Below, piece by piece: positions 1,406-61,126 of a DNA stretch of 64,000 nucleotides. A program made the position numbers and the translations under genes. Origin of the DNA: a phage; the sequence record PX645697.1, one strand, 5' to 3'. Under the pieces are notes generated by a model. That model saw nothing but the letters and a program-made list of their open reading frames with translations. It searched no databases and had not been told where the DNA came from. The number at the start of each line of letters is the position of its first letter. The stretch's first letter is position 1.

Positions 1406-1624
1406 ATGAAAATGATGAAACAAGCTGTATATGGTTTAGTTTGTTTAGGTGCAGGAGTCGTGGTATCTACTGCAATCCCTGTAAGCGCAGTTCATCCATT
1501 AGTTACAGCACCTGCTCCAGTAGAGAAACTTAGTTCTCAATGTAAGCAGCGAACCATTCAAAATAATCTAGTTGTTATTTGTCCTGATGCTGAATCTAAC
1601 GCTCTGAGAAAGATACTACCTTAA
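1406..1624 (+). CDS. small membrane protein, holin candidate (72 aa)
   Basis: Single N-terminal hydrophobic segment (VYGLVCLGAGVVVSTAIPVSA), located immediately upstream of the lysozyme gene; no homology evidence. Confidence 0.3.
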   Translation: MKMMKQAVYGLVCLGAGVVVSTAIPVSAVHPLVTAPAPVEKLSSQCKQRTIQNNLVVICPDAESNALRKILP

Positions 1625-1653: not shown

Positions 1654-2145
1654 ATGGATAACGCCGCATTGCCACCTGTACAACTAAACTTAAGCCCAGC
1701 TGGAATGGAATTCATCATGAAGCATGAGGGTATGAGAACCAAGGCTTATAAAGATTCCGCAGGTATCTGGACTATATGTGTAGGGGCTACGCGCGATATG
1801 AATGGTTATCCGGTTAGACAAGGATTAACGTATTCTATAGAGGATTGTCTAGCTCTGCTAGATAGAGACACACAAGACTCTGTTCGTGCTACTCAGAAGA
1901 ACATAAAGGTTCCTTTACTAGTTCATGAGTTTGATGCACTCACTTCTTTCAACTTCAATGTTGGCAGTGGGGCTTTGAGCACATCTAAGTTAAGGAAGGT
2001 AATCAATGGAGATGTTAAGGGGGATGTTTATTCCGAATTTCTTCGTTGGGATAAAATAACGGTCAAGGGAGAGAAGCAGAGAAGTCAGGGTCTTCATAAT
2101 AGAAGAGTTGCAGAAGCTAATCTTTACACCGAAGGTAAATATTAA
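1654..2145 (+). CDS. endolysin, GH24 lysozyme (T4/lambda lysozyme family)
   Basis: FIMKHEGMRTKAYKDSAGIWTICVG ... FDALTSFNFNVG ... GLHNRRVAEANLY matches catalytic Glu region and core of phage muramidases; SD AAAGGAGG upstream. Confidence 0.8.
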   Translation: MDNAALPPVQLNLSPAGMEFIMKHEGMRTKAYKDSAGIWTICVGATRDMNGYPVRQGLTYSIEDCLALLDRDTQDSVRATQKNIKVPLLVHEFDALTSFNFNVGSGALSTSKLRKVINGDVKGDVYSEFLRWDKITVKGEKQRSQGLHNRRVAEANLYTEGKY

Positions 2146-7001: not shown

Positions 7002-8036
7002 ATGGCATATGGAATATGGACAAGCCCGGTCGGTCCGGGTCCAGCGGCACCTGCTGACATTTACATTGACAGTGGTAGCACTTTCCCTCAACTCAGAAAT
7101 AGAGTCAGTGGGAATTTCTCTTTTAGCGGAAATACCTGTGACTTGCCTATAAGCGGTTGGGATGGTAGCGGTCAGATAGTTGTAGTCCCAACAGGGTCTG
7201 TTGTTTGGGAGAGATACATACCTCCTAATGTAACATCTGATGTGTATTGGCTAACGGATATATCTGTTATTAATAACTCAACCTTCAGAGTTACTATGGA
7301 CTATAACGTAAACGGTTGGGTATTTGATATGGCTTTTAATGTATATCAAATATGGCCTAGAGCTAATAGGAACTATGGAATCACATTCTCCAACTCTGCT
7401 GACTATTTCTCAATCTCTGATTCTGGAGTTGTTGGTCAATGTATTTGGGCTTGGGAAGGTGACATAAATGGCTCTCTTCAAATACCAGATATTGGAGGTT
7501 TTGATATGAGTCGAGCAACTGTCTATGCAAATTGGAGTAACGGCGGAGCAGGGCTACTATACAACCCATCTAATAGGGTTGTTTATGTGTACCAGAACAG
7601 ATCTCATGATAATGGTAACACAAATCAAACAGGGTACATTGGTGGTGTTAGGATTGCCGTATTCTGTGATGGTTCGGGAGTACCAACCCACAATGGAGGT
7701 TTAAATATCTTTTCTCCAAATGGGTCTCAGTGTGTTTTTTCTACATATAGAACCCCTTTTAGTGTTGAGGGATTTATGCCTATGAGTGGTGGTAACACAT
7801 CTTTGGCCTATCCAATGATACCTCTATCTTATGGTGCTGGAGCAATAAGAGGTAAGGCTAGTGGTTGGTATTTTCAACACACAAGATCTCACATGATGAA
7901 TGGCTCTTCTTTTGGTACAGGTTTCGGAAGGATGATTTACTCTTGGAGTAGTCAATATGATTTAGGAGGGGGTGGTGCCCTCGGGTTAAGTATTCCAATA
8001 TTAGATGCTAGAAAGATATTCAGGAGTATACAATAA
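7002..8036 (+). CDS. hypothetical structural protein
   Basis: Track ORF, tightly packed in structural operon; Gly/Ser/Asn-rich. Confidence 0.4.
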   Translation: MAYGIWTSPVGPGPAAPADIYIDSGSTFPQLRNRVSGNFSFSGNTCDLPISGWDGSGQIVVVPTGSVVWERYIPPNVTSDVYWLTDISVINNSTFRVTMDYNVNGWVFDMAFNVYQIWPRANRNYGITFSNSADYFSISDSGVVGQCIWAWEGDINGSLQIPDIGGFDMSRATVYANWSNGGAGLLYNPSNRVVYVYQNRSHDNGNTNQTGYIGGVRIAVFCDGSGVPTHNGGLNIFSPNGSQCVFSTYRTPFSVEGFMPMSGGNTSLAYPMIPLSYGAGAIRGKASGWYFQHTRSHMMNGSSFGTGFGRMIYSWSSQYDLGGGGALGLSIPILDARKIFRSIQ

Positions 8037-8045
8037 GGAGATATT

Positions 8046-8828
8046 ATGGCAATTAGAATGGGTATCGAAGAACTAGACCCAATGGTACAGCAAGCTTCAA
8101 AGAAGTATGGGATTCCTGCTGCTTTGATTCATGCTGTAATCCAAAGAGAGTCTAGTGGACGTCCTAAAGTAGCCTCTGGAACTGGTCCTGTAGGTTTAAT
8201 GCAGATCAGTAAAGGATTGGCTAAAGACTATGGATACAAACTAGAAGATAGACTGGACCCAGCAAAGAATATTGATATGGGCGCTCGTTACATAAGAGAT
8301 AACTTAAAAGCTTTTAATGGTGATGTTAAGAAAGCAATGGTTGGTTATTCAGAAGGTATCGGTGGAGCTAAGCAAATGTTCGCTGGTAAAAAGGGATTTA
8401 CTCCACAAGCTCTTGACTCCATGAACAATAAACACTTTCTTCCTTTCTATGGTGATGCAGCTTCTCAAATTGCTAACCCTGTTGGAGCTTTACAAGCTGT
8501 TCAACCAGTCAATCAGTTTAGTCCTGACTTGTTAGATAGAGAGAAGGCCGCACAAGCTCCAACTCAGGCAGACATTACTGCTTCTAAGACAGGTGCTTTA
8601 GGCGGAAATCCAGTAGAGTTTTACTCTGATGAAGTACAAGAAGGGGAAGATCAGAAGCCTCAACAGAACTTTGGTAATGCAGTATTAGGTGTAGCTGCTA
8701 TGCTTGCTGGTAAACCTCCGACTTCTCAAACAGTTCAGAGGGCAAGTGCACCACATGCAGCAGGTTCTCAGTACAGTCCACAAACACAAGCAGTGCTCAG
8801 ACGTTTGGCTAGCATTGGTGTAAAGTAA
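8046..8828 (+). CDS. lytic transglycosylase (SLT domain), probable virion-associated peptidoglycan hydrolase
   Basis: ALIHAVIQRESSGRPKVASGTGPVGLMQISKGLAKDYG matches the SLT catalytic ES...GLMQ motif. Confidence 0.7.
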   Translation: MAIRMGIEELDPMVQQASKKYGIPAALIHAVIQRESSGRPKVASGTGPVGLMQISKGLAKDYGYKLEDRLDPAKNIDMGARYIRDNLKAFNGDVKKAMVGYSEGIGGAKQMFAGKKGFTPQALDSMNNKHFLPFYGDAASQIANPVGALQAVQPVNQFSPDLLDREKAAQAPTQADITASKTGALGGNPVEFYSDEVQEGEDQKPQQNFGNAVLGVAAMLAGKPPTSQTVQRASAPHAAGSQYSPQTQAVLRRLASIGVK

Positions 8829-19555: not shown

Positions 19556-21041
<1,486 letters not shown>

Positions 21042-21042
<1 letters not shown>

Positions 21043-21302
21043 TATTCTATTCCACGCTCTTTAAGAGCTTCTAACAATCCGTTGTGATTAGCAGCACATT
21101 CTGTGTACTGGTCCTGATACCACTCCAACGTAGTGGCTAGTGCTTTTCCTTGAGCACTCTCTAAAAGAGGTAGGTCAACCCTACATTCAGCTTTTAGGTT
21201 TGTTGGTAAGGGCATTGATTGCCTGCTGTTGTCGCTCGTTGAACAAGCTGACATACTCATCACTAGCGCAGACATTATAAAAAACTGGTTTAGTTTTCTC
21301 AT
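21042..21302 (-). CDS. o-spanin-like lipoprotein candidate, embedded/overlapping
   Basis: Internal ATG 21302; MRKLNQFFIMSALVMSMSAC lipoprotein-type signal with Cys; overlaps the 3' part of the next gene in another frame. Confidence 0.3.
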
Positions 21303-21561
21303 AATGCATCTCTTTATAAATGGTTTCCGTGTTCTTCTTCCAGTTAGATAAACCGGTAAGAACCCTCTGAGCAACTTCATCAGCTGCTCTATTTCTTTCA
21401 ATCTCTAACTCTTGTTGATGTTTCTCTTTGTCCAGATTACTGCTGTCTGTTTGATATTCGTTAAACTTCATACCACCAAAGAATACAAGAGCTGAGAAAA
21501 CGATAAACCCTAAGTTATCACTTAATGTGTTTTGCATGTTGTCTCCAACGAAAAAAGCCAC
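21187..21561 (-). CDS. i-spanin-like protein candidate (N-terminal TM plus coiled coil)
   Basis: LGFIVFSALVFFGGM hydrophobic segment followed by charged helical region; overlapped arrangement with the lipoprotein ORF. Confidence 0.35.
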   Translation of the reverse strand: MAFFVGDNMQNTLSDNLGFIVFSALVFFGGMKFNEYQTDSSNLDKEKHQQELEIERNRAADEVAQRVLTGLSNWKKNTETIYKEMHYEKTKPVFYNVCASDEYVSLFNERQQQAINALTNKPKS

Positions 21562-22400: not shown

Positions 22401-22409
22401 TATACATTA
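22401..22409 (-). promoter_or_regulatory. TAATGTATA motif (minus strand) upstream of SSB-like gene
   Basis: Exact 9-mer 59 nt upstream of ATG 22341; part of a palindromic TATGTATA-G-TATACATA arrangement. Confidence 0.35.
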
Positions 22410-54849: not shown

Positions 54850-55247
54850 CTTTATTAAATCAGTTATTGTAAACCCAACCACCTTGACGTTTACGGATGT
54901 TACCCATCAGACGCAGCATGGCAGATTCAATCTTCAGAGCACCATTTGTTACTGCATCCATACGTTCAGGGCGGTTCATACGTTTGGTTGATACTTTCAT
55001 ACACATCTCTCTTTGTTAGTGGAGGCATTATTGCCAGTTGATATAAGGGATAGCCCTAGTCAGGAGGCTAATTCTGACCGCGCACTCATTGCCGACCTTC
55101 TCTGCCTAAGAGTTCAGGTTCTAGAGCTATCTCTTATCCCAACTGGTGAAGACTCCCTACCCCTAGGAAGTCTCCTGAATCCCAAACCAATATGTACCCC
55201 TACATATCGGAAATCTTTCGAAAATTAACAGGTTTTAGTCTAGCACC

Positions 55248-55348
55248 GGATGTTCGAGCAAGCTCTCCCTAGCGGTGTGGCATATGCCTGAATTAATAAG
55301 TTAATGAGGAACACCCTCACATAGCCCTCTGATAAACACAAGGGCTAT
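55248..55348 (-). repeat. conserved 3' element, copy B
   Basis: Same three blocks and ATAGCCCT/AGGGCTAT hairpin, ending 9 nt after stop of gene 55358..55576. Confidence 0.5.
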
Positions 55349-55357
55349 AAGTCGGTG

Positions 55358-55576
55358 TTACTTTTGAGTCACATGAAGATCAGGGCGAGGTGTAACAGTG
55401 GTGCCACCCTTAAAAAGACCAACATAACCAGTACGAAGATTGGCTGCTTTATGTGAACCATTATTTGCTACCTCTTCAAGCAGCAACCAGAACCGGCTAT
55501 CATAAAAGAAAACCGACCCACTTTCTAGATCACATATTTTTGAAAACTTAAGAGGTTTACCTTCATTGATTTCCAT
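55358..55576 (-). CDS. small protein, early-region paralog family
   Basis: ...ICDLESGSVFFYDSRFWLLLEE... Confidence 0.4.
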   Translation of the reverse strand: MEINEGKPLKFSKICDLESGSVFFYDSRFWLLLEEVANNGSHKAANLRTGYVGLFKGGTTVTPRPDLHVTQK

Positions 55577-55834
55577 TTACTTACCTTTATTAGTAATAAC
55601 AACATCATGAAGCACAACAGCAGGGAGGTTGGAGTTGAGTTTCATAACCTGATTGGTATTTAAACTCAGAACCGTGCACCCTTCATCGCGAGGCTTAGTC
55701 TCTGTCACATGTGGTGTGAAGAGTTGTACAATCATGTAATAATCGATACATGTTGACTTTACTTGGAACACATCACCAAGTTTCAAATCACCTACACACA
55801 ACTTATTAACCTTAGGATTAAGATCAATCTTCAT
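55577..55834 (-). CDS. small protein, early-region paralog family
   Basis: ...VGDLKLGDVFQVKSTCIDYYMIV... Confidence 0.4.
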   Translation of the reverse strand: MKIDLNPKVNKLCVGDLKLGDVFQVKSTCIDYYMIVQLFTPHVTETKPRDEGCTVLSLNTNQVMKLNSNLPAVVLHDVVITNKGK

Positions 55835-56084
55835 CTTTAGCCTCGATGTTAGTTATGTGGAGATCGTTGCGCACTTGGCAGACTTCATCACGATTAATAG
55901 GGATGAGTTTTCCAGTGACTACATCAACGCAGTTCACATAATTATCTGCATATAAAGAATCGGTTCGAATATAAAGGAACCCTTTAGACTCAAAGAGAAC
56001 CCCCGGCTTCATGTTATTTAAGCGAAGCATTGTACGGTTAGGTTTAATATTAACCTTCACTGTTAATCTCCTGCTGCTTAGCAA
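55824..56084 (-). CDS. small protein, early-region paralog family
   Basis: ...LNNMKPGVLFESKGFLYIRTD... Confidence 0.4.
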   Translation of the reverse strand: MLSSRRLTVKVNIKPNRTMLRLNNMKPGVLFESKGFLYIRTDSLYADNYVNCVDVVTGKLIPINRDEVCQVRNDLHITNIEAKDED

Positions 56085-56346
56085 TAGCTACTCGCAAGTC
56101 TTCATTAGCACGAGCAAGGCGCAACACTTCGTGGTTGAGGCTCTGAAGACGTTTGTTTCTGTCCTCAACTTGCATAATAAGATCGTTAAGAATCACTTTA
56201 ACTTTCTCATTATACATCTCATCCACTCGGACTAGGGATTTATACATTCTCTCCCAGCTTGCTGCTTTGTTTCTTAGAATAATAAATCCTATAACGCTGA
56301 TAGTTAAACAGCTTACAAAAAGGAATTTATATACTTCTAAAGTCAT
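56050..56346 (-). CDS. membrane protein with N-terminal TM and coiled coil
   Basis: FLFVSCLTISVIGFIIL followed by charged helical region. Confidence 0.35.
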   Translation of the reverse strand: MTLEVYKFLFVSCLTISVIGFIILRNKAASWERMYKSLVRVDEMYNEKVKVILNDLIMQVEDRNKRLQSLNHEVLRLARANEDLRVAIAKQQEINSEG

Positions 56347-56545
56347 ATTATTTACCCTTTATCAGAGATTAAAAGTAATATTATTTAAGTAAGTTATATT
56401 TAGTAAACTTATTTTCTAAGAAATTTTCAAAGGGTCTATATACAGAGCATTACCCATAGTCCCAGAATACTACCATCTTTTTCAATAAATTTACTAAGTG
56501 GTTGGTTTATAAAGGAATTTAGTTTGTCAAATCTGGCACTAGTGA

Positions 56546-56935
56546 CTATTCCCTAGAGCTATTATCGAACACTAAATCACCACAATACATAGGATTGGCA
56601 TACCATTTTGGCACCCCTTCGCTCTTACTCTGAAAGTAAGTCCCACTATACAGCGGAACATAATTCTTCTTAAGGGCACGTTTAGCCAGCCGCTCGCTTT
56701 CTCCAATGGCTTGCTTAGTCATTGGATTTTTATCACGAATCAGCTTTACATAACGTTTATAAGGTTTCTCCTGTTTTAATAGTACCGGAATCCACTCAAA
56801 CTGGTTCTTTTGTCTTATCACCTGTTCAGCGGTCAGTTTTCGTTGGGCCATTCTATTTATCACGGTATCCGCAACTAAAGCTTTACATGCGGTTGGCTGG
56901 TTCCCTGCCTCATAATAAATAGTCAATGTCAACAT
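56546..56935 (-). CDS. cell-wall hydrolase, SleB/CwlJ-like
   Basis: TIYYEAGNQPTACKALVADTVINRMAQ...QFEWIP resembles the SleB-type hydrolase core. Confidence 0.45.
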   Translation of the reverse strand: MLTLTIYYEAGNQPTACKALVADTVINRMAQRKLTAEQVIRQKNQFEWIPVLLKQEKPYKRYVKLIRDKNPMTKQAIGESERLAKRALKKNYVPLYSGTYFQSKSEGVPKWYANPMYCGDLVFDNSSRE

Positions 56936-56984
56936 TAGCTGTGCCGTTGTTATCAGAACTTGATACCTCCTGTTTTACGGGCAT

Positions 56985-57010
56985 AAAAAAGCCCCAGCCG
57001 TAGCCGGGGC
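56985..57010 (-). terminator. rho-independent terminator
   Basis: Minus-strand GCCCC-10 nt loop-GGGGC followed by UUUUUU. Confidence 0.5.
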
Positions 57011-57262
57011 GGTTATTAACGTGATACTGCTTCCATGAATCCTATCATAAGTATCAATAAGGTGATAATAACACCAAAAAGCATACCACATAGGAAGAAA
57101 GATCCACCTTCCCCTAGATATGAAATAGCTGATTCCACGGATAACTCCTACAGCAACGCAAAAAGCCGCTCAAAGGCGGCTATGCGGAAGCTTCAAATGG
57201 GGAGAGGGCACGACGCGACAGAAAGAGCGTCATAGTACTAAAAGAGGGGGCTGTATTCCCTA

Positions 57263-57706
57263 CTACTTTACCCTTGCTTCTTTGATGGGGTCAATGTATT
57301 TTTCAACGCCCCACTTGTGTTTACTGTCAGCGTAGAAAACATCAGGTGCGCACTGACTAGTCTTAGGGAAAGCCTGCGGGTCTTTCGTGCTACCCTTAGA
57401 CTTCTGTTTACCTCGGGTGCGACCATTACAGAAGATTTCTAACTTCTTCTCCTCTTCTGTTTTAGCTCCCCCGCTCTTTAACAAAGAACGTTTATGATCG
57501 GCTAACAATAACGCATCAGCACGATGAACGCGATGGCCTACACGTTTTGCCACACTAGAAGGGATATAGGATTCAGCTTCAGCCCTTGCAGCACGACGTT
57601 TTAAACTGCGCTTACTAATGTAATTGGTTGCCTTCGGCTTCTCTTTCTCCAGTTCAGAGATAGAAAAACAACGCCCGCCCTTCATGCTGATTTTAGATTT
57701 AGTCAC
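57263..57706 (-). CDS. basic hypothetical protein
   Basis: Track ORF, K/R-rich. Confidence 0.35.
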   Translation of the reverse strand: MTKSKISMKGGRCFSISELEKEKPKATNYISKRSLKRRAARAEAESYIPSSVAKRVGHRVHRADALLLADHKRSLLKSGGAKTEEEKKLEIFCNGRTRGKQKSKGSTKDPQAFPKTSQCAPDVFYADSKHKWGVEKYIDPIKEARVK

Positions 57707-57775
57707 AATCTTATTCCTTTCAGTGATAAGTTATATCGGGCAAGCCCATCAAGTCGATAGGCTTGAACAAATAAC

Positions 57776-57985
57776 TTAATCGAGTAAACTAAATGACTTC
57801 CAACTACGTAGCAGGATTGTACCATCATCCATAGCTACGCATAACTTTAACAGTTTCTTGTTAGCACTACTTACCGTTGTAATTCGTCCAGTTGTACATT
57901 TACCTTTGTTGCTATAAAGGTATACAACACGACGGCCTAACAGTCGGGAAGGAGCTTTCTTAAATTCTGAAATGTTAGTGATCAT
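57776..57985 (-). CDS. hypothetical small protein
   Basis: Track ORF. Confidence 0.35.
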   Translation of the reverse strand: MITNISEFKKAPSRLLGRRVVYLYSNKGKCTTGRITTVSSANKKLLKLCVAMDDGTILLRSWKSFSLLD

Positions 57986-58206
57986 AATGCTTGATACCTT
58001 TGAATGTGTTCGATACGGGTGGATTGAGCAAATGACGCTTTAACAGCCATTTTCCTAACTTCTTCCTTACGTTGGTTGGCGTGTATAGTATCCCAATGGT
58101 TGTTATCACGTTGGCGCTGTAATATCTTACTACACTTGCGATGGTTTCCCGTGCTGCGATGTTTCTCACAAATAGGACACTTGCCAAAAGTATTACTGAA
58201 TATCAT
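57982..58206 (-). CDS. small zinc-finger protein
   Basis: CPICEKH...H..C pattern. Confidence 0.3.
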   Translation of the reverse strand: MIFSNTFGKCPICEKHRSTGNHRKCSKILQRQRDNNHWDTIHANQRKEEVRKMAVKASFAQSTRIEHIQRYQAL

Positions 58207-58430
58207 TTTCTCAATCCCAGCTTTCTTAAGATACGGCCTAACGTTGTTTCTTGCGTGATAATATAGCTTATCGCTTCACGTTCCAACGTTTCAATTTTCA
58301 TTGGTGACGGATACCATTCACCAGTAAGCACGCATTTACACTCAACGCCATACTTTTTAGATAGGCGGTAATGTTGACCGTTGACAAGATTCCGATAAAT
58401 CGTGGTATGCGTAATTAACATGATCGTCAC
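58203..58430 (-). CDS. hypothetical small protein
   Basis: Track ORF. Confidence 0.35.
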   Translation of the reverse strand: MTIMLITHTTIYRNLVNGQHYRLSKKYGVECKCVLTGEWYPSPMKIETLEREAISYIITQETTLGRILRKLGLRK

Positions 58431-58532
58431 CTTTGATTATATTCTTTGATTAATGCACTGAATCAATGCACTGATAAAAGAAAAGGCGCTACCCGTTAAG
58501 ATAGCGCCTCATGTTTATTATAATCGTATTAC

Positions 58533-59432
58533 TTATGCCGCCTGACGTGCCGCCATAATCTCAGCCGCTTTACGCAATACTTCTTCCTCTTCTTCTTTCG
58601 CAGCTTGTTCGGTACGGGTAGCAACCGTTGAAGAGATACGACCGCGCAGGTTGTCTAACTTCTCCTGCATTTTGGCAATAGTTGATTCCATTTCATCAGC
58701 GTACGAATCCAGTGATTCCAACTCCTTGCTCGATGCGTTCATCAAGTAGTCATCAGAGATCGCTACCGTTGAAGCCGTGACCTTCTTGATGAGTGAATCA
58801 AAGGACTTTTTAACCTTCCCAACTTCTTCACTCAGGGCGATAGTGTTATCGCTAGTTGCGCCGTTGCGCTCATCAGCCAGTAATTTGGCTTCAATACGGA
58901 TTGCATTCAAGCGTTCAACTAAAGCGTAAATATCCTGATTAAAATCTTCCTTGTTTTTCGCCGGGATTTGCAGGTGTGCCGCTACGTTGTCATTGCAACC
59001 TTTGAAGAAGTTAGGGTTATCGACTTCAATTTCACGACCTAAAGCAAAGTTTTCGAAAGCGTTTGACCAGCGAGCGCGGTTTTGTTCCATTTTGGCCTTA
59101 ATTTGCGCTTCTTTCGCATCTTCTTTCGCTTTCGCTTCACCTTCCAGATTAATCCACTTTTTACGACCGTTTGCCGCCTCGGTGTTAAACTTGATAGGAG
59201 TCAGGAAAGTAATTGCAGTGGCGATCACATCCATATCGCGGAAACGTTCGGTTAACAGAAAATCGACCGCCGCTTGCAATACGTCCAGCTTTTTACCGTT
59301 ACTGCGGAAGTGCTGCAAGTGCCCTAACAGAAAATTAGAAACATCTTGCTTAATCGCTGCGTTATTGCTACGAATGTTGTTAGCCAGTGCGTTAAAACCA
59401 GATTCTTTTACCAGATTAAAAACTTTAGCCAT
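58533..59432 (-). CDS. hypothetical coiled-coil protein
   Basis: Track ORF 58533..59441 trimmed to ATG 59432 (AAAGGTG upstream; track start GTG is inside the SD). Confidence 0.4.
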   Translation of the reverse strand: MAKVFNLVKESGFNALANNIRSNNAAIKQDVSNFLLGHLQHFRSNGKKLDVLQAAVDFLLTERFRDMDVIATAITFLTPIKFNTEAANGRKKWINLEGEAKAKEDAKEAQIKAKMEQNRARWSNAFENFALGREIEVDNPNFFKGCNDNVAAHLQIPAKNKEDFNQDIYALVERLNAIRIEAKLLADERNGATSDNTIALSEEVGKVKKSFDSLIKKVTASTVAISDDYLMNASSKELESLDSYADEMESTIAKMQEKLDNLRGRISSTVATRTEQAAKEEEEEVLRKAAEIMAARQAA

Positions 59433-60355: not shown

Positions 60356-60384
60356 ATTATGGACCATGATGTTTTCGCTGTCAA
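60356..60384 (-). promoter_or_regulatory. sigma70-type promoter (TTGACA-N17-CATAAT) with A-rich upstream region
   Basis: Read on minus strand: -35 at 60384-60379, -10 at 60361-60356. Confidence 0.5.
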
Positions 60385-60807
60385 TCGCTTTTTAATCTTT
60401 TTCGTCGTTCCCGCTATTGGGAGGATATATCAATCAGCTTTATTTGATTGAAGATTAAGCGATAAGGCTTAACTCATGATTCACATTGTTAAAGAGCGTT
60501 TTTAGCCTTTTATAGTGTCTGCTAGTCACTGCGTCATTGAAGGCTTACTTATTCATTAACGGGGCGCCTAATCCCGAACTACTCGCTGCACTATGTGCCA
60601 CCTTTCCCGCGATACGTTGATTTGGGAACTAGTTAGCGATGTTTTGCTAACTTGTGGTTAGTATGAACTACTTTAACCACGTTTGCAATCTCTTTTTTAT
60701 CATCTTCTTTTATTTTCTTTTCCCTTATCTCGCTTGAATCTATGCGAAAGGGCAAGATGATAAGTTTTTAAAGAGCGGGATTTTTTAAGTCATCGCTGAC
60801 TATGCTC

Positions 60808-60836
60808 ACTATATATCAGGCTGTTTTCGGTGTCAA
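60808..60836 (-). promoter_or_regulatory. sigma70-type promoter (TTGACA-N17-TATAGT) with A-rich upstream region
   Basis: Read on minus strand: -35 at 60836-60831, -10 at 60813-60808. Confidence 0.55.
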
Positions 60837-61098
60837 TACTCTTTTAAGAATATTTTTCACTTTCTAGCCTGATTTTTAAAGAGCGGTTGAAGTCTCTCTC
60901 TTCACGGGGTATTGCGTAGTGCCCAACGTTCTCTGTTACCGCGCTATAGGTAGTAACTTAGTATCCGACAATCAGACCTTCTTCACTCGGTGAAGCCCGG
61001 CCTCTCAATTTACTGTTAGTGAGGCGGTTACAGTGTACCTGCTACCGATTCCGTGGTGGCGTCTTACTGCTTGTTGCTTACTGCTTACTACGGGATTT

Positions 61099-61126
61099 AT
61101 ATTAATATATAGGAAAATCTTGTCAA
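61099..61126 (-). promoter_or_regulatory. sigma70-type promoter candidate (TTGACA-N16-TAATAT)
   Basis: Read on minus strand: -35 at 61126-61121; -10 less certain. Confidence 0.4.

Follow-up and report, generated by a model that had tools for sequence, protein, structure and literature searches.

A gene for a predicted SleB-like peptidoglycan hydrolase in the early region of Kuravirus coliphages, separate from the canonical lysis genes

Results

A SleB-like gene in the right-hand region of a Kuravirus genome

The stretch of DNA analysed here (PX645697.1; 64,000 nt, referred to throughout as the window) belongs to a Kuravirus (phiEco32-like) coliphage. A megablast search with positions 55000..59000 returned approximately 100 phage records at 86-93% identity, and all are Escherichia or Shigella podophages of the Gordonclarkvirinae (Kuravirus: phiEco32, SU10, WFI101126, ES17 and others). 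On the minus strand of this region is an ORF (56546..56935) that encodes 129 aa from its annotated ATG and whose translation contains the segments TIYYEAGNQ, VINRMAQ and QFEWIP. This frame and its motifs are as described in the original prediction, which had proposed a SleB/CwlJ-like hydrolase at this position from the letters of the sequence, but the start that it used is most probably not the one employed by the phage. As detailed below, the gene more probably begins at a CTG codon and extends over 56546..56956 (-), giving a 136-aa protein with a single SleB/CwlJ-family (Hydrolase_2) domain. Residue numbers refer to this longer form unless stated otherwise.

Family, fold and active site

The search named in the original prediction as a check on its call was one with the Hydrolase_2 profile. 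Pfam Hydrolase_2 (PF07486) matches the 129-aa form at 32.2 bits (E = 1.7e-7) and the 136-aa form at 32.0 bits; the gathering cut-off of this family is 27 bits, so the call survives that check. Other single-step searches were less informative. The protein falls in phrog_12974, a PHROG of unknown function, with a weak match to an endolysin PHROG, a scan of NCBIfam gave no meaningful match, and a single-sequence phmmer search of the PDB returned noise only. A family profile, which we built from 53 homologues, was required to detect relatives in the PDB. This profile matches the SleB crystal structures 4F55 and 4FET (E = 5.5e-19 and 2e-18, respectively) over positions 8-133, which is essentially the whole domain. 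An exhaustive profile search of 1.8 billion representative sequences yielded only 76 matches at E <= 1e-3; they are mostly 115-190 aa long and share the pattern ...L.L.IYhEA(R/G)(G/N)(E/Q)P..GQ..VA.VV.NR...QF(S/E)W...

The residues that are invariant in the family are all present, the catalytic glutamate among them. E16 and R35 are invariant in alignments of 53 and of 97 members of the family, F130 is invariant in the alignment of 97, and Y14, A17, N34, Q52, F53, W55, P116, W118 and G126 are at least 90% conserved. The catalytic glutamate is E16 (E9 in the numbering of the 129-aa form), which lies in a Y-x-E-[AS] motif at the end of helix 1. In the profile alignment it is matched with the glutamate of the SleB motif YGESRGE, presumably the residue numbered E151/E157 in SleB proteins. 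[quoted passage not shown]

An AlphaFold2 model gave a pLDDT of 46 with a shallow alignment of 10 sequences, and an alignment of 97 diverse homologues was therefore used, which yielded a pLDDT of 92.7 and a pTM of 0.89. Among PDB entries, Foldseek assigned this model a probability of 1.00 only with 4FET and 4F55 (TM 0.56-0.65), all other entries having E > 2. In a library of viral structures the best match is the SU10 protein (100% identical over 128 aligned columns, with TM 0.91-0.96 to the model), and many further matches are phage 'SleB' cell wall hydrolases and endolysins. The protein has a mass of about 15.8 kDa and a pI of about 9.7. Hydrolase_2 is a recognized catalytic domain of lysins from phages that infect Gram-negative bacteria, and a basic pI is typical of such lysins (PMC8223927).

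With a Pfam score above cut-off, profile matches to SleB, a predicted SleB fold and SleB names already present in public databases, the assignment to the SleB/CwlJ family is secure as judged from sequence and model, and the original call is borne out by the Pfam and SleB profile matches, the modelled fold and the conserved catalytic glutamate. By analogy with SleB, the protein is most probably a lytic transglycosylase that would cleave the MurNAc-GlcNAc bond by means of Glu16.

The protein carries no recognizable export element. Its maximum hydropathy over 19 residues is 0.71, compared with maxima of 2.1-2.9 for the holin and for both neighbouring small membrane proteins, and no signal peptide, signal-arrest-release (SAR) or transmembrane segment was detected. 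The N-terminus (MITTAQLMLTLTIYYE) corresponds to helix 1 of the catalytic domain in the model (pLDDT ~93), and its stretch of about 14 moderately hydrophobic residues is too short and too weakly hydrophobic for a SAR or signal sequence; the protein is thus not a SAR or signal-peptide endolysin. A peptidoglycan-degrading domain without a secretion signal is what is found in a canonical endolysin.

A probable non-AUG start codon

No Shine-Dalgarno sequence precedes the annotated ATG at 56935. A perfect one, AGGAGG at 56966..56971 (-), is located 30 nt upstream of this ATG and 9 nt upstream of an in-frame CTG (56956..56954). Both the Shine-Dalgarno sequence and the CTG are retained in all 10 of the Kuravirus/Suseptimavirus-type sequences compared, the former as GGGGG in the two SU7-type phages and as AGGAGG in the others. 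SU7-type phages carry CTT where the annotated ATG should be, and the annotated start is therefore absent from them. The seven codons between CTG and ATG (L-ITTAQL-M/L) encode the same peptide in spite of synonymous differences (ACA/ACG, ACG/ACA and GCA/GCC). In two metagenomic relatives (L006 and L008) the homologous codon is TTG in the arrangement AGGAGG-N4-TTG, and the proteins called there begin MLTTAALL-LTLTIY; the homologue in phage Privateer is likewise annotated with a TTG start. Among the 75 nearest cluster representatives, 38 have the catalytic glutamate among their first 25 residues, where it typically follows 8-10 N-terminal residues, and in the AlphaFold2 model the seven additional residues complete helix 1 at a pLDDT of ~93.

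From these comparisons and the model, the SleB-like protein is most probably a 136-aa polypeptide initiated at the weak, non-AUG codon CTG 56956 rather than at ATG 56935, and its predicted N-terminal peptide would be (M)ITTAQLMLTLTIYYEAGNQPTACK. GenBank orthologues all start at the ATG or later, with inconsistent annotated lengths of 101, 128 or 129 aa. Judged by the model, part of helix 1 is cut off in proteins called from the ATG. Records of 101 aa (SU7 gp110, L005 1567..1872; EP335) start at an internal methionine and lack helix 1 together with the catalytic glutamate, and the predicted structure of the 101-aa EP335 protein (BFVD A0A2Z3DJI5) fails to align with the fold of the family (TM 0.28). 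The start codon is probably mis-annotated in a systematic way, the likely one being a CTG or TTG that follows a conserved Shine-Dalgarno sequence.

Transcription context and neighbouring genes

Three near-consensus sigma70 promoter-like sites with TTGACA -35 elements (61126, 60836 and 60384, within 60356..61126 on the minus strand) head the leftward early operon. SU10 and phiEco32 have three early promoters between genes 120 and 121, upstream of a 300-aa gene (PMC4281155), and the sites at 60.4-61.1 kb match these. The right-hand leftward cluster of phiEco32 and SU10 belongs to the early class (PMC8948821; PMC4281155; PMC9965538). The window was also searched for the promoter element of the phage sigma factor gp36 (TAATGTATA / tAATGTAtA, from PMC8948821), and no middle or late promoter of this type was found near or upstream of the SleB-like gene. 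Elsewhere in the window there are five exact copies of TAATGTATA, at 7337, 12571 and 22473 (+) and at 22401 and 28603 (-), and those at ~22.4 kb form a divergent pair between leftward replication genes and rightward genes. With one mismatch allowed, the element is no more frequent than expected by chance.

Several terminator-like hairpins separate the early promoters from the gene. The nearest (56985..57010, -) has an 8-bp G+C stem, a UACG (UNCG-type) loop and a U6 tract, with a folding energy of -18.8 kcal/mol (z = -3.7), and it ends ~14 nt before the Shine-Dalgarno sequence of the SleB-like gene. It is conserved, and SU7-type phages show one compensatory pair change in it (G-C to U-A). A second hairpin (57164..57181, -; AGCCGCC..GGCGGCT followed by U5, -12.3 kcal/mol) lies further upstream. 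A third, with a 12-bp stem, is found at 58483..58510 (-), immediately behind the gene that opens the early operon and encodes 302 aa, so that early transcripts have at least three hairpins to pass before they reach the SleB-like gene. There is no room for a promoter between the last hairpin and the gene. For phage 7-11, a relative, antitermination has been suggested (PMC8948821). We consider the gene to be expressed early, a class taken from the cluster in which it lies, and presumably by read-through or antitermination. The level of expression is probably low, given three terminator-like hairpins after the early promoters and a weak CTG start, although the latter is served by a strong Shine-Dalgarno sequence.

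A small ORF of 40 aa (57016..57138, -) sits exactly between two of these terminator-like hairpins. It has a GTG start with an AGGAG Shine-Dalgarno sequence 6 nt upstream, encodes one hydrophobic segment (FFLCGMLFGVIITLLILMI, hydropathy 2.86) and matches phrog_38462 of unknown function (2.1e-28); it is missing from this position in XT18, SU7 and phiEco32. Downstream of the SleB-like gene, the 98-aa protein encoded at 56050..56346 (-) agrees with its earlier description as a transmembrane and coiled-coil protein, with an N-terminal transmembrane segment (residues 5-23, Kyte-Doolittle 2.17) and, after it, a charged tail with a heptad-like pattern. In distant relatives, syntenic proteins of weak similarity (28-33% identity) are encoded behind the hydrolase gene. 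The label 'DNA helicase' that this neighbour carries (phrog_12154 and many GenBank records) is almost certainly a propagated mis-annotation, because a transmembrane and coiled-coil protein of 98 aa cannot be a helicase.

The spacer between the SleB-like gene and the conserved gene for a basic 147/148-aa protein (56936..57262) is a variable, hairpin-packed hot-spot of 240-650 nt (regions compared: L005 1171..1465; L006 9373..10001; L008 5924..6581; L001 4940..5850). In the window it holds the 40-aa membrane ORF, and in phiEco32 it holds two extra genes, gp118 and gp119 (the latter annotated 'agglutinating adhesin'). Two further conserved spacer hairpins, AAAGGGnnnnCCCTTTG and GAAACrTGGCAyGTTTC, are shared by SU7 and the metagenomic relatives, and a change from G:C to A:T in them seems to be compensatory. 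An Rfam scan of the structured intergenic region upstream of the gene identified no family and gave weak, terminator-driven matches only.

Distribution and selection

By tblastn, the SleB-like protein is encoded in 121 phage records, 63 of which are at least 99% identical to it. Approximately 99 records carry the gene at 80% identity or more, and all are Gordonclarkvirinae; in the 22 records in which identity is below 60%, the phages are Grimontviridae and relatives infecting Salmonella, Cronobacter, Proteus and Edwardsiella. Many deposited phages have an ORF that is 100% identical, and the reading frame is intact in every genome examined (~99 phage records). This is an ancient gene in this group of phages. 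The orthologue in phiEco32 is gp117 (phi32_117), annotated as 'hypothetical protein', as are most orthologues in GenBank. A few records (XT18, EcM-vB1 and ShigP1) use the label 'cell wall hydrolase', and the UniProt entry for SU10 gp116 (A0A0B4N207) already bears the name 'Cell wall hydrolase SleB domain-containing protein'.

Pairwise Nei-Gojobori comparisons among the window, XT18, SU7 and two metagenomic relatives (69-74% amino acid identity) give dN/dS values of 0.09-0.22, with dS ranging from 0.08 to saturation (>1). Between the window and phiEco32 there are seven synonymous and no non-synonymous differences. Such strong purifying selection indicates that the gene is not a relic.

The canonical lysis genes and the virion transglycosylase

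The remaining genes that the original prediction had put forward as possible parts of a lysis cassette were all recovered, and the peptidoglycan-cleaving domains do lie, as it had stated, at three separate places. A holin gene (1406..1624, +; phrog_11161 holin, 2.3e-48; one transmembrane segment) is found immediately upstream of a gene for a GH24 endolysin (1654..2145, +; Pfam Phage_lysozyme, 111.7 bits; phrog_7 endolysin), in agreement with the holin candidate and lysozyme reported there. The GH24 endolysin is present at 80% identity or more in ~99 Gordonclarkvirinae records. The overlapping spanin-like ORFs noted at 21042..21561 comprise an Rz-like i-spanin (21187..21561, -; phrog_1152, 1.3e-37) and a candidate o-spanin (21042..21302, -) that overlaps it and has the lipobox SMSAC; phrog_2425 is given for the spanin pair. 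Just downstream of the spanins, an ORF at 20602..21042 (-) encodes a Macro domain (PF01661 in Pfam, 37.4 bits with the cut-off at 22), which could bind or remove ADP-ribose and so act against ADP-ribosylating defences.

The holin and the GH24 lysozyme are treated as the lysis pair in the literature (PMC9965538; PMC7881722). The canonical lysis set consists of these two late, plus-strand genes and the spanin pair, and it is separate from the SleB-like gene. This assignment largely settles which of the genes make up the true lysis cassette, a matter that the original prediction had left undecided. Unlike a late, holin-linked endolysin gene, the SleB-like gene is situated 55 kb away from the holin gene, behind terminators in the early region that is read leftward.

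The third peptidoglycan-cleaving domain, the SLT transglycosylase of the virion module (8046..8828, +; Pfam SLT, 84.4 bits), matches the PHROG 'internal virion protein/transglycosylase'. It is a virion-internal entry protein and does not serve lysis from within. Mass spectrometry (MS) of SU10 particles detected a 27.5-kDa 'internal virion protein', which by size and synteny would correspond to this SLT protein. The SleB-like orthologue gp116 is not among the 34 SU10 proteins detected, and neither are the lysozyme and holin, in a sample that was a PEG-concentrated lysate rather than CsCl-purified phage.

Discussion

Possible functions of the SleB-like protein

We lean, with a confidence only slightly above an even balance, towards a reading from sequence and model in which the SleB-like protein would be an accessory, holin-dependent and weakly expressed lytic transglycosylase of the early region that acts with the GH24 enzyme as a back-up endolysin. 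The enzyme would be made at a low level from the sigma70-dependent early transcription unit and would accumulate harmlessly in the cytoplasm from early in infection. Since it has no export signal, it would gain access to the wall only when the holin (1406..1624) fires and permeabilizes the inner membrane, and it would then cut glycan strands beside the GH24 muramidase, in an accessory or back-up role. We infer in this proposal the bond specificity of the enzyme, its dependence on the holin, its level of expression and its contribution to lysis. Speaking against an accessory endolysin are the early-class placement, the upstream terminators and the non-AUG start, which are atypical for an endolysin gene, and the fact that the GH24 muramidase already cuts the same glycosidic bond.

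Strong purifying selection, together with the survival of the gene in two phage families while their main endolysin changed, hints at a role that is not redundant. The SleB-like protein could be a conserved early protein with a distinct function, either in regulation or host takeover (compare T7 lysozyme) or as an 'early-loaded' lysis enzyme for particular wall states. We judge this to be unlikely. If true, it would explain why the gene is retained in the sigma70 early region of two families whose main endolysins are unrelated, and also why purifying selection on it is strong and its non-AUG start deliberately weak.

T7 lysozyme inhibits T7 RNA polymerase, and this precedent suggests a moonlighting, non-lytic function in the early cytoplasm, such as binding or inhibition of a host or phage protein by a polypeptide that retains the SleB fold. 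The position of the gene in the early sigma70 region of Gordonclarkvirinae and, by accession arithmetic, of phage 7-11 would fit such a function, as would its retention while the main endolysin differs between families, the lack of an export signal and the strong purifying selection despite the presence of a GH24 enzyme. However, the catalytic glutamate and all family-invariant residues are kept, which pure binding would not require, and endolysins that are transcribed before the late phase exist elsewhere. A moonlighting function therefore seems improbable to us.

It is less plausible still that the SleB-like protein is the ancestral and still principal endolysin, with the GH24 enzyme as an auxiliary. 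Although it is the sole peptidoglycan enzyme common to Gordonclarkvirinae and Grimontviridae, and its homologues are annotated as endolysins in GAP52, Privateer and others, the GH24 gene is equally universal in the subfamily and directly follows the holin gene in the late module, where the published lysis pair is placed (PMC9965538; PMC7881722), whereas the SleB-like gene has a weak start codon behind terminators and no adjacent holin gene.

Membrane-protein genes on both flanks, the downstream one syntenic in distant relatives, and the early class of the gene would agree with remodelling of the wall from the periplasm early in infection, for superinfection exclusion or control of cell shape, by way of an unrecognized export route that might involve 57016..57138 and 56050..56346. 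The hydrolase itself has no signal peptide, SAR-like or transmembrane segment, though; the 40-aa ORF is missing from this region of XT18, SU7 and phiEco32; and the positive-inside rule would put the coiled coil of the 98-aa protein in the cytoplasm. We hold early periplasmic action to be very unlikely.

A decaying gene, poorly expressed and functionally irrelevant, might be suspected from the upstream terminators, from the loss of the canonical ATG in SU7-type phages with CTG as the likely start, from the lack of detection by MS in SU10 and from the inconsistent annotation (101, 128 or 129 aa). Against this, dN/dS is low while synonymous divergence is saturated, the frame is intact in ~99 phage records, the Shine-Dalgarno sequence is conserved, the N-terminal extension is kept at the amino acid level and every invariant residue is present, which leaves vestigial status a highly improbable explanation. 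Least credible of all is a virion-associated entry enzyme, for although some phage SleB domains occur within very large structural proteins (1191-1385 aa), this is a 136-aa single-domain protein of the early region, and the SLT internal virion protein, which already fills the entry role, was seen in SU10 particles while the SleB-like orthologue was not.

To return to the reading that we favour, an accessory endolysin, the gene concerned is already recognized by UniProt and by some of the GenBank records, and lysins with a SleB domain are an established class among Gram-negative phages. What is new is that the start is probably CTG or TTG, that the gene lies in an early context flanked by terminators and that it is conserved across families; these are useful points of annotation rather than a discovery. 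They tidy the inventory of lysis genes for Kuravirus phages, a group with uses in phage therapy against E. coli, and identify a third, overlooked enzyme of SleB type as a conserved early gene. They also raise the question of why two related families with different main endolysins both keep an early SleB-like enzyme.

Comparison with known systems

The phage protein shares with Bacillus SleB and CwlJ (PF07486; 4F55, 4FET) the fold of the catalytic domain, the glutamate of the Y-x-E-[AS] motif and the NR and QF motifs, and with CwlJ also its single-domain size. Identity to SleB in structural alignments is only ~16-17%. [quoted passage not shown] Bacillus SleB needs muramic-delta-lactam, and because E. 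coli peptidoglycan does not contain it, the substrate specificity of the phage enzyme must differ from that of SleB.

Closer relatives are the Hydrolase_2 'endolysins' of Grimontviridae (GAP52 gp023, Privateer gp098 and AEK82026 of 7-11), which are 32-36% identical to the SleB-like protein. They are likewise single-domain proteins of ~140 aa with no signal, from related podophages of the C3 morphotype that have a separate main endolysin. They are more typical of the family, with Pfam scores of 54-62 bits compared with 32 here, and their gene neighbours are different ones, namely Ter-like and COOH-NH2 ligase genes. In GAP52, gp025 (L004 4621..5169), whose gene lies two genes downstream from that of the Hydrolase_2 protein, is 182 aa long and carries a signal of the lipoprotein type (LLGC lipobox), an unusual companion for a putative lysin in a phage whose annotated spanins are elsewhere.

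The main endolysins of the two families are unrelated. GAP52 has a separate Peptidase_M15_4 endolysin, gp069, in its leftward late cluster, the Privateer paper names an endopeptidase as the endolysin, and according to the SU10 paper neither 7-11 nor GAP52 has the Kuravirus holin or lysozyme. Correspondingly, we found no M15 homologue in the window, and no GH24 or SLT homologue in the sequenced parts of GAP52 that were searched. Gordonclarkvirinae (GH24) and Grimontviridae (M15 peptidase) nevertheless have the SleB-like gene in common. The idea that Grimontviridae have the SleB-like protein as their only endolysin, and that GH24 displaced it in Kuravirus, was considered and rejected because of the GAP52 gp069 M15 endolysin and the Privateer endopeptidase.

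In 7-11, accession arithmetic calibrated on the sigma factor (gp47 = AEK81962) suggests that AEK82026 is the product of gene 111, which is located between two early sigma70 promoters (gene 151) and the first late promoter (gene 69). The M15 endolysin of this phage, AEK81965 (gene 50), is in the late cluster. From the position of gene 111, placement of the SleB-like gene in the early region appears to be conserved across both families.

Other Hydrolase_2 proteins of Gram-negative phages, in Vequintavirinae/Certrevirus (CB7_83, CR3_087) and Phapecoctavirus, have also been implicated in lysis or proposed to act in it (PMC7344957; PMC10793346), and in Phapecoctavirus a SleB-like protein is paired with a GH24 lysozyme, as in the window. 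CB7_83 is toxic when expressed, has a signal peptide and overlaps with a candidate class II holin, whereas the window protein has neither a signal nor an adjacent holin. SU10 gp116 and phiEco32 gp117 are identical or near-identical to the window protein and differ from it in nothing substantive.
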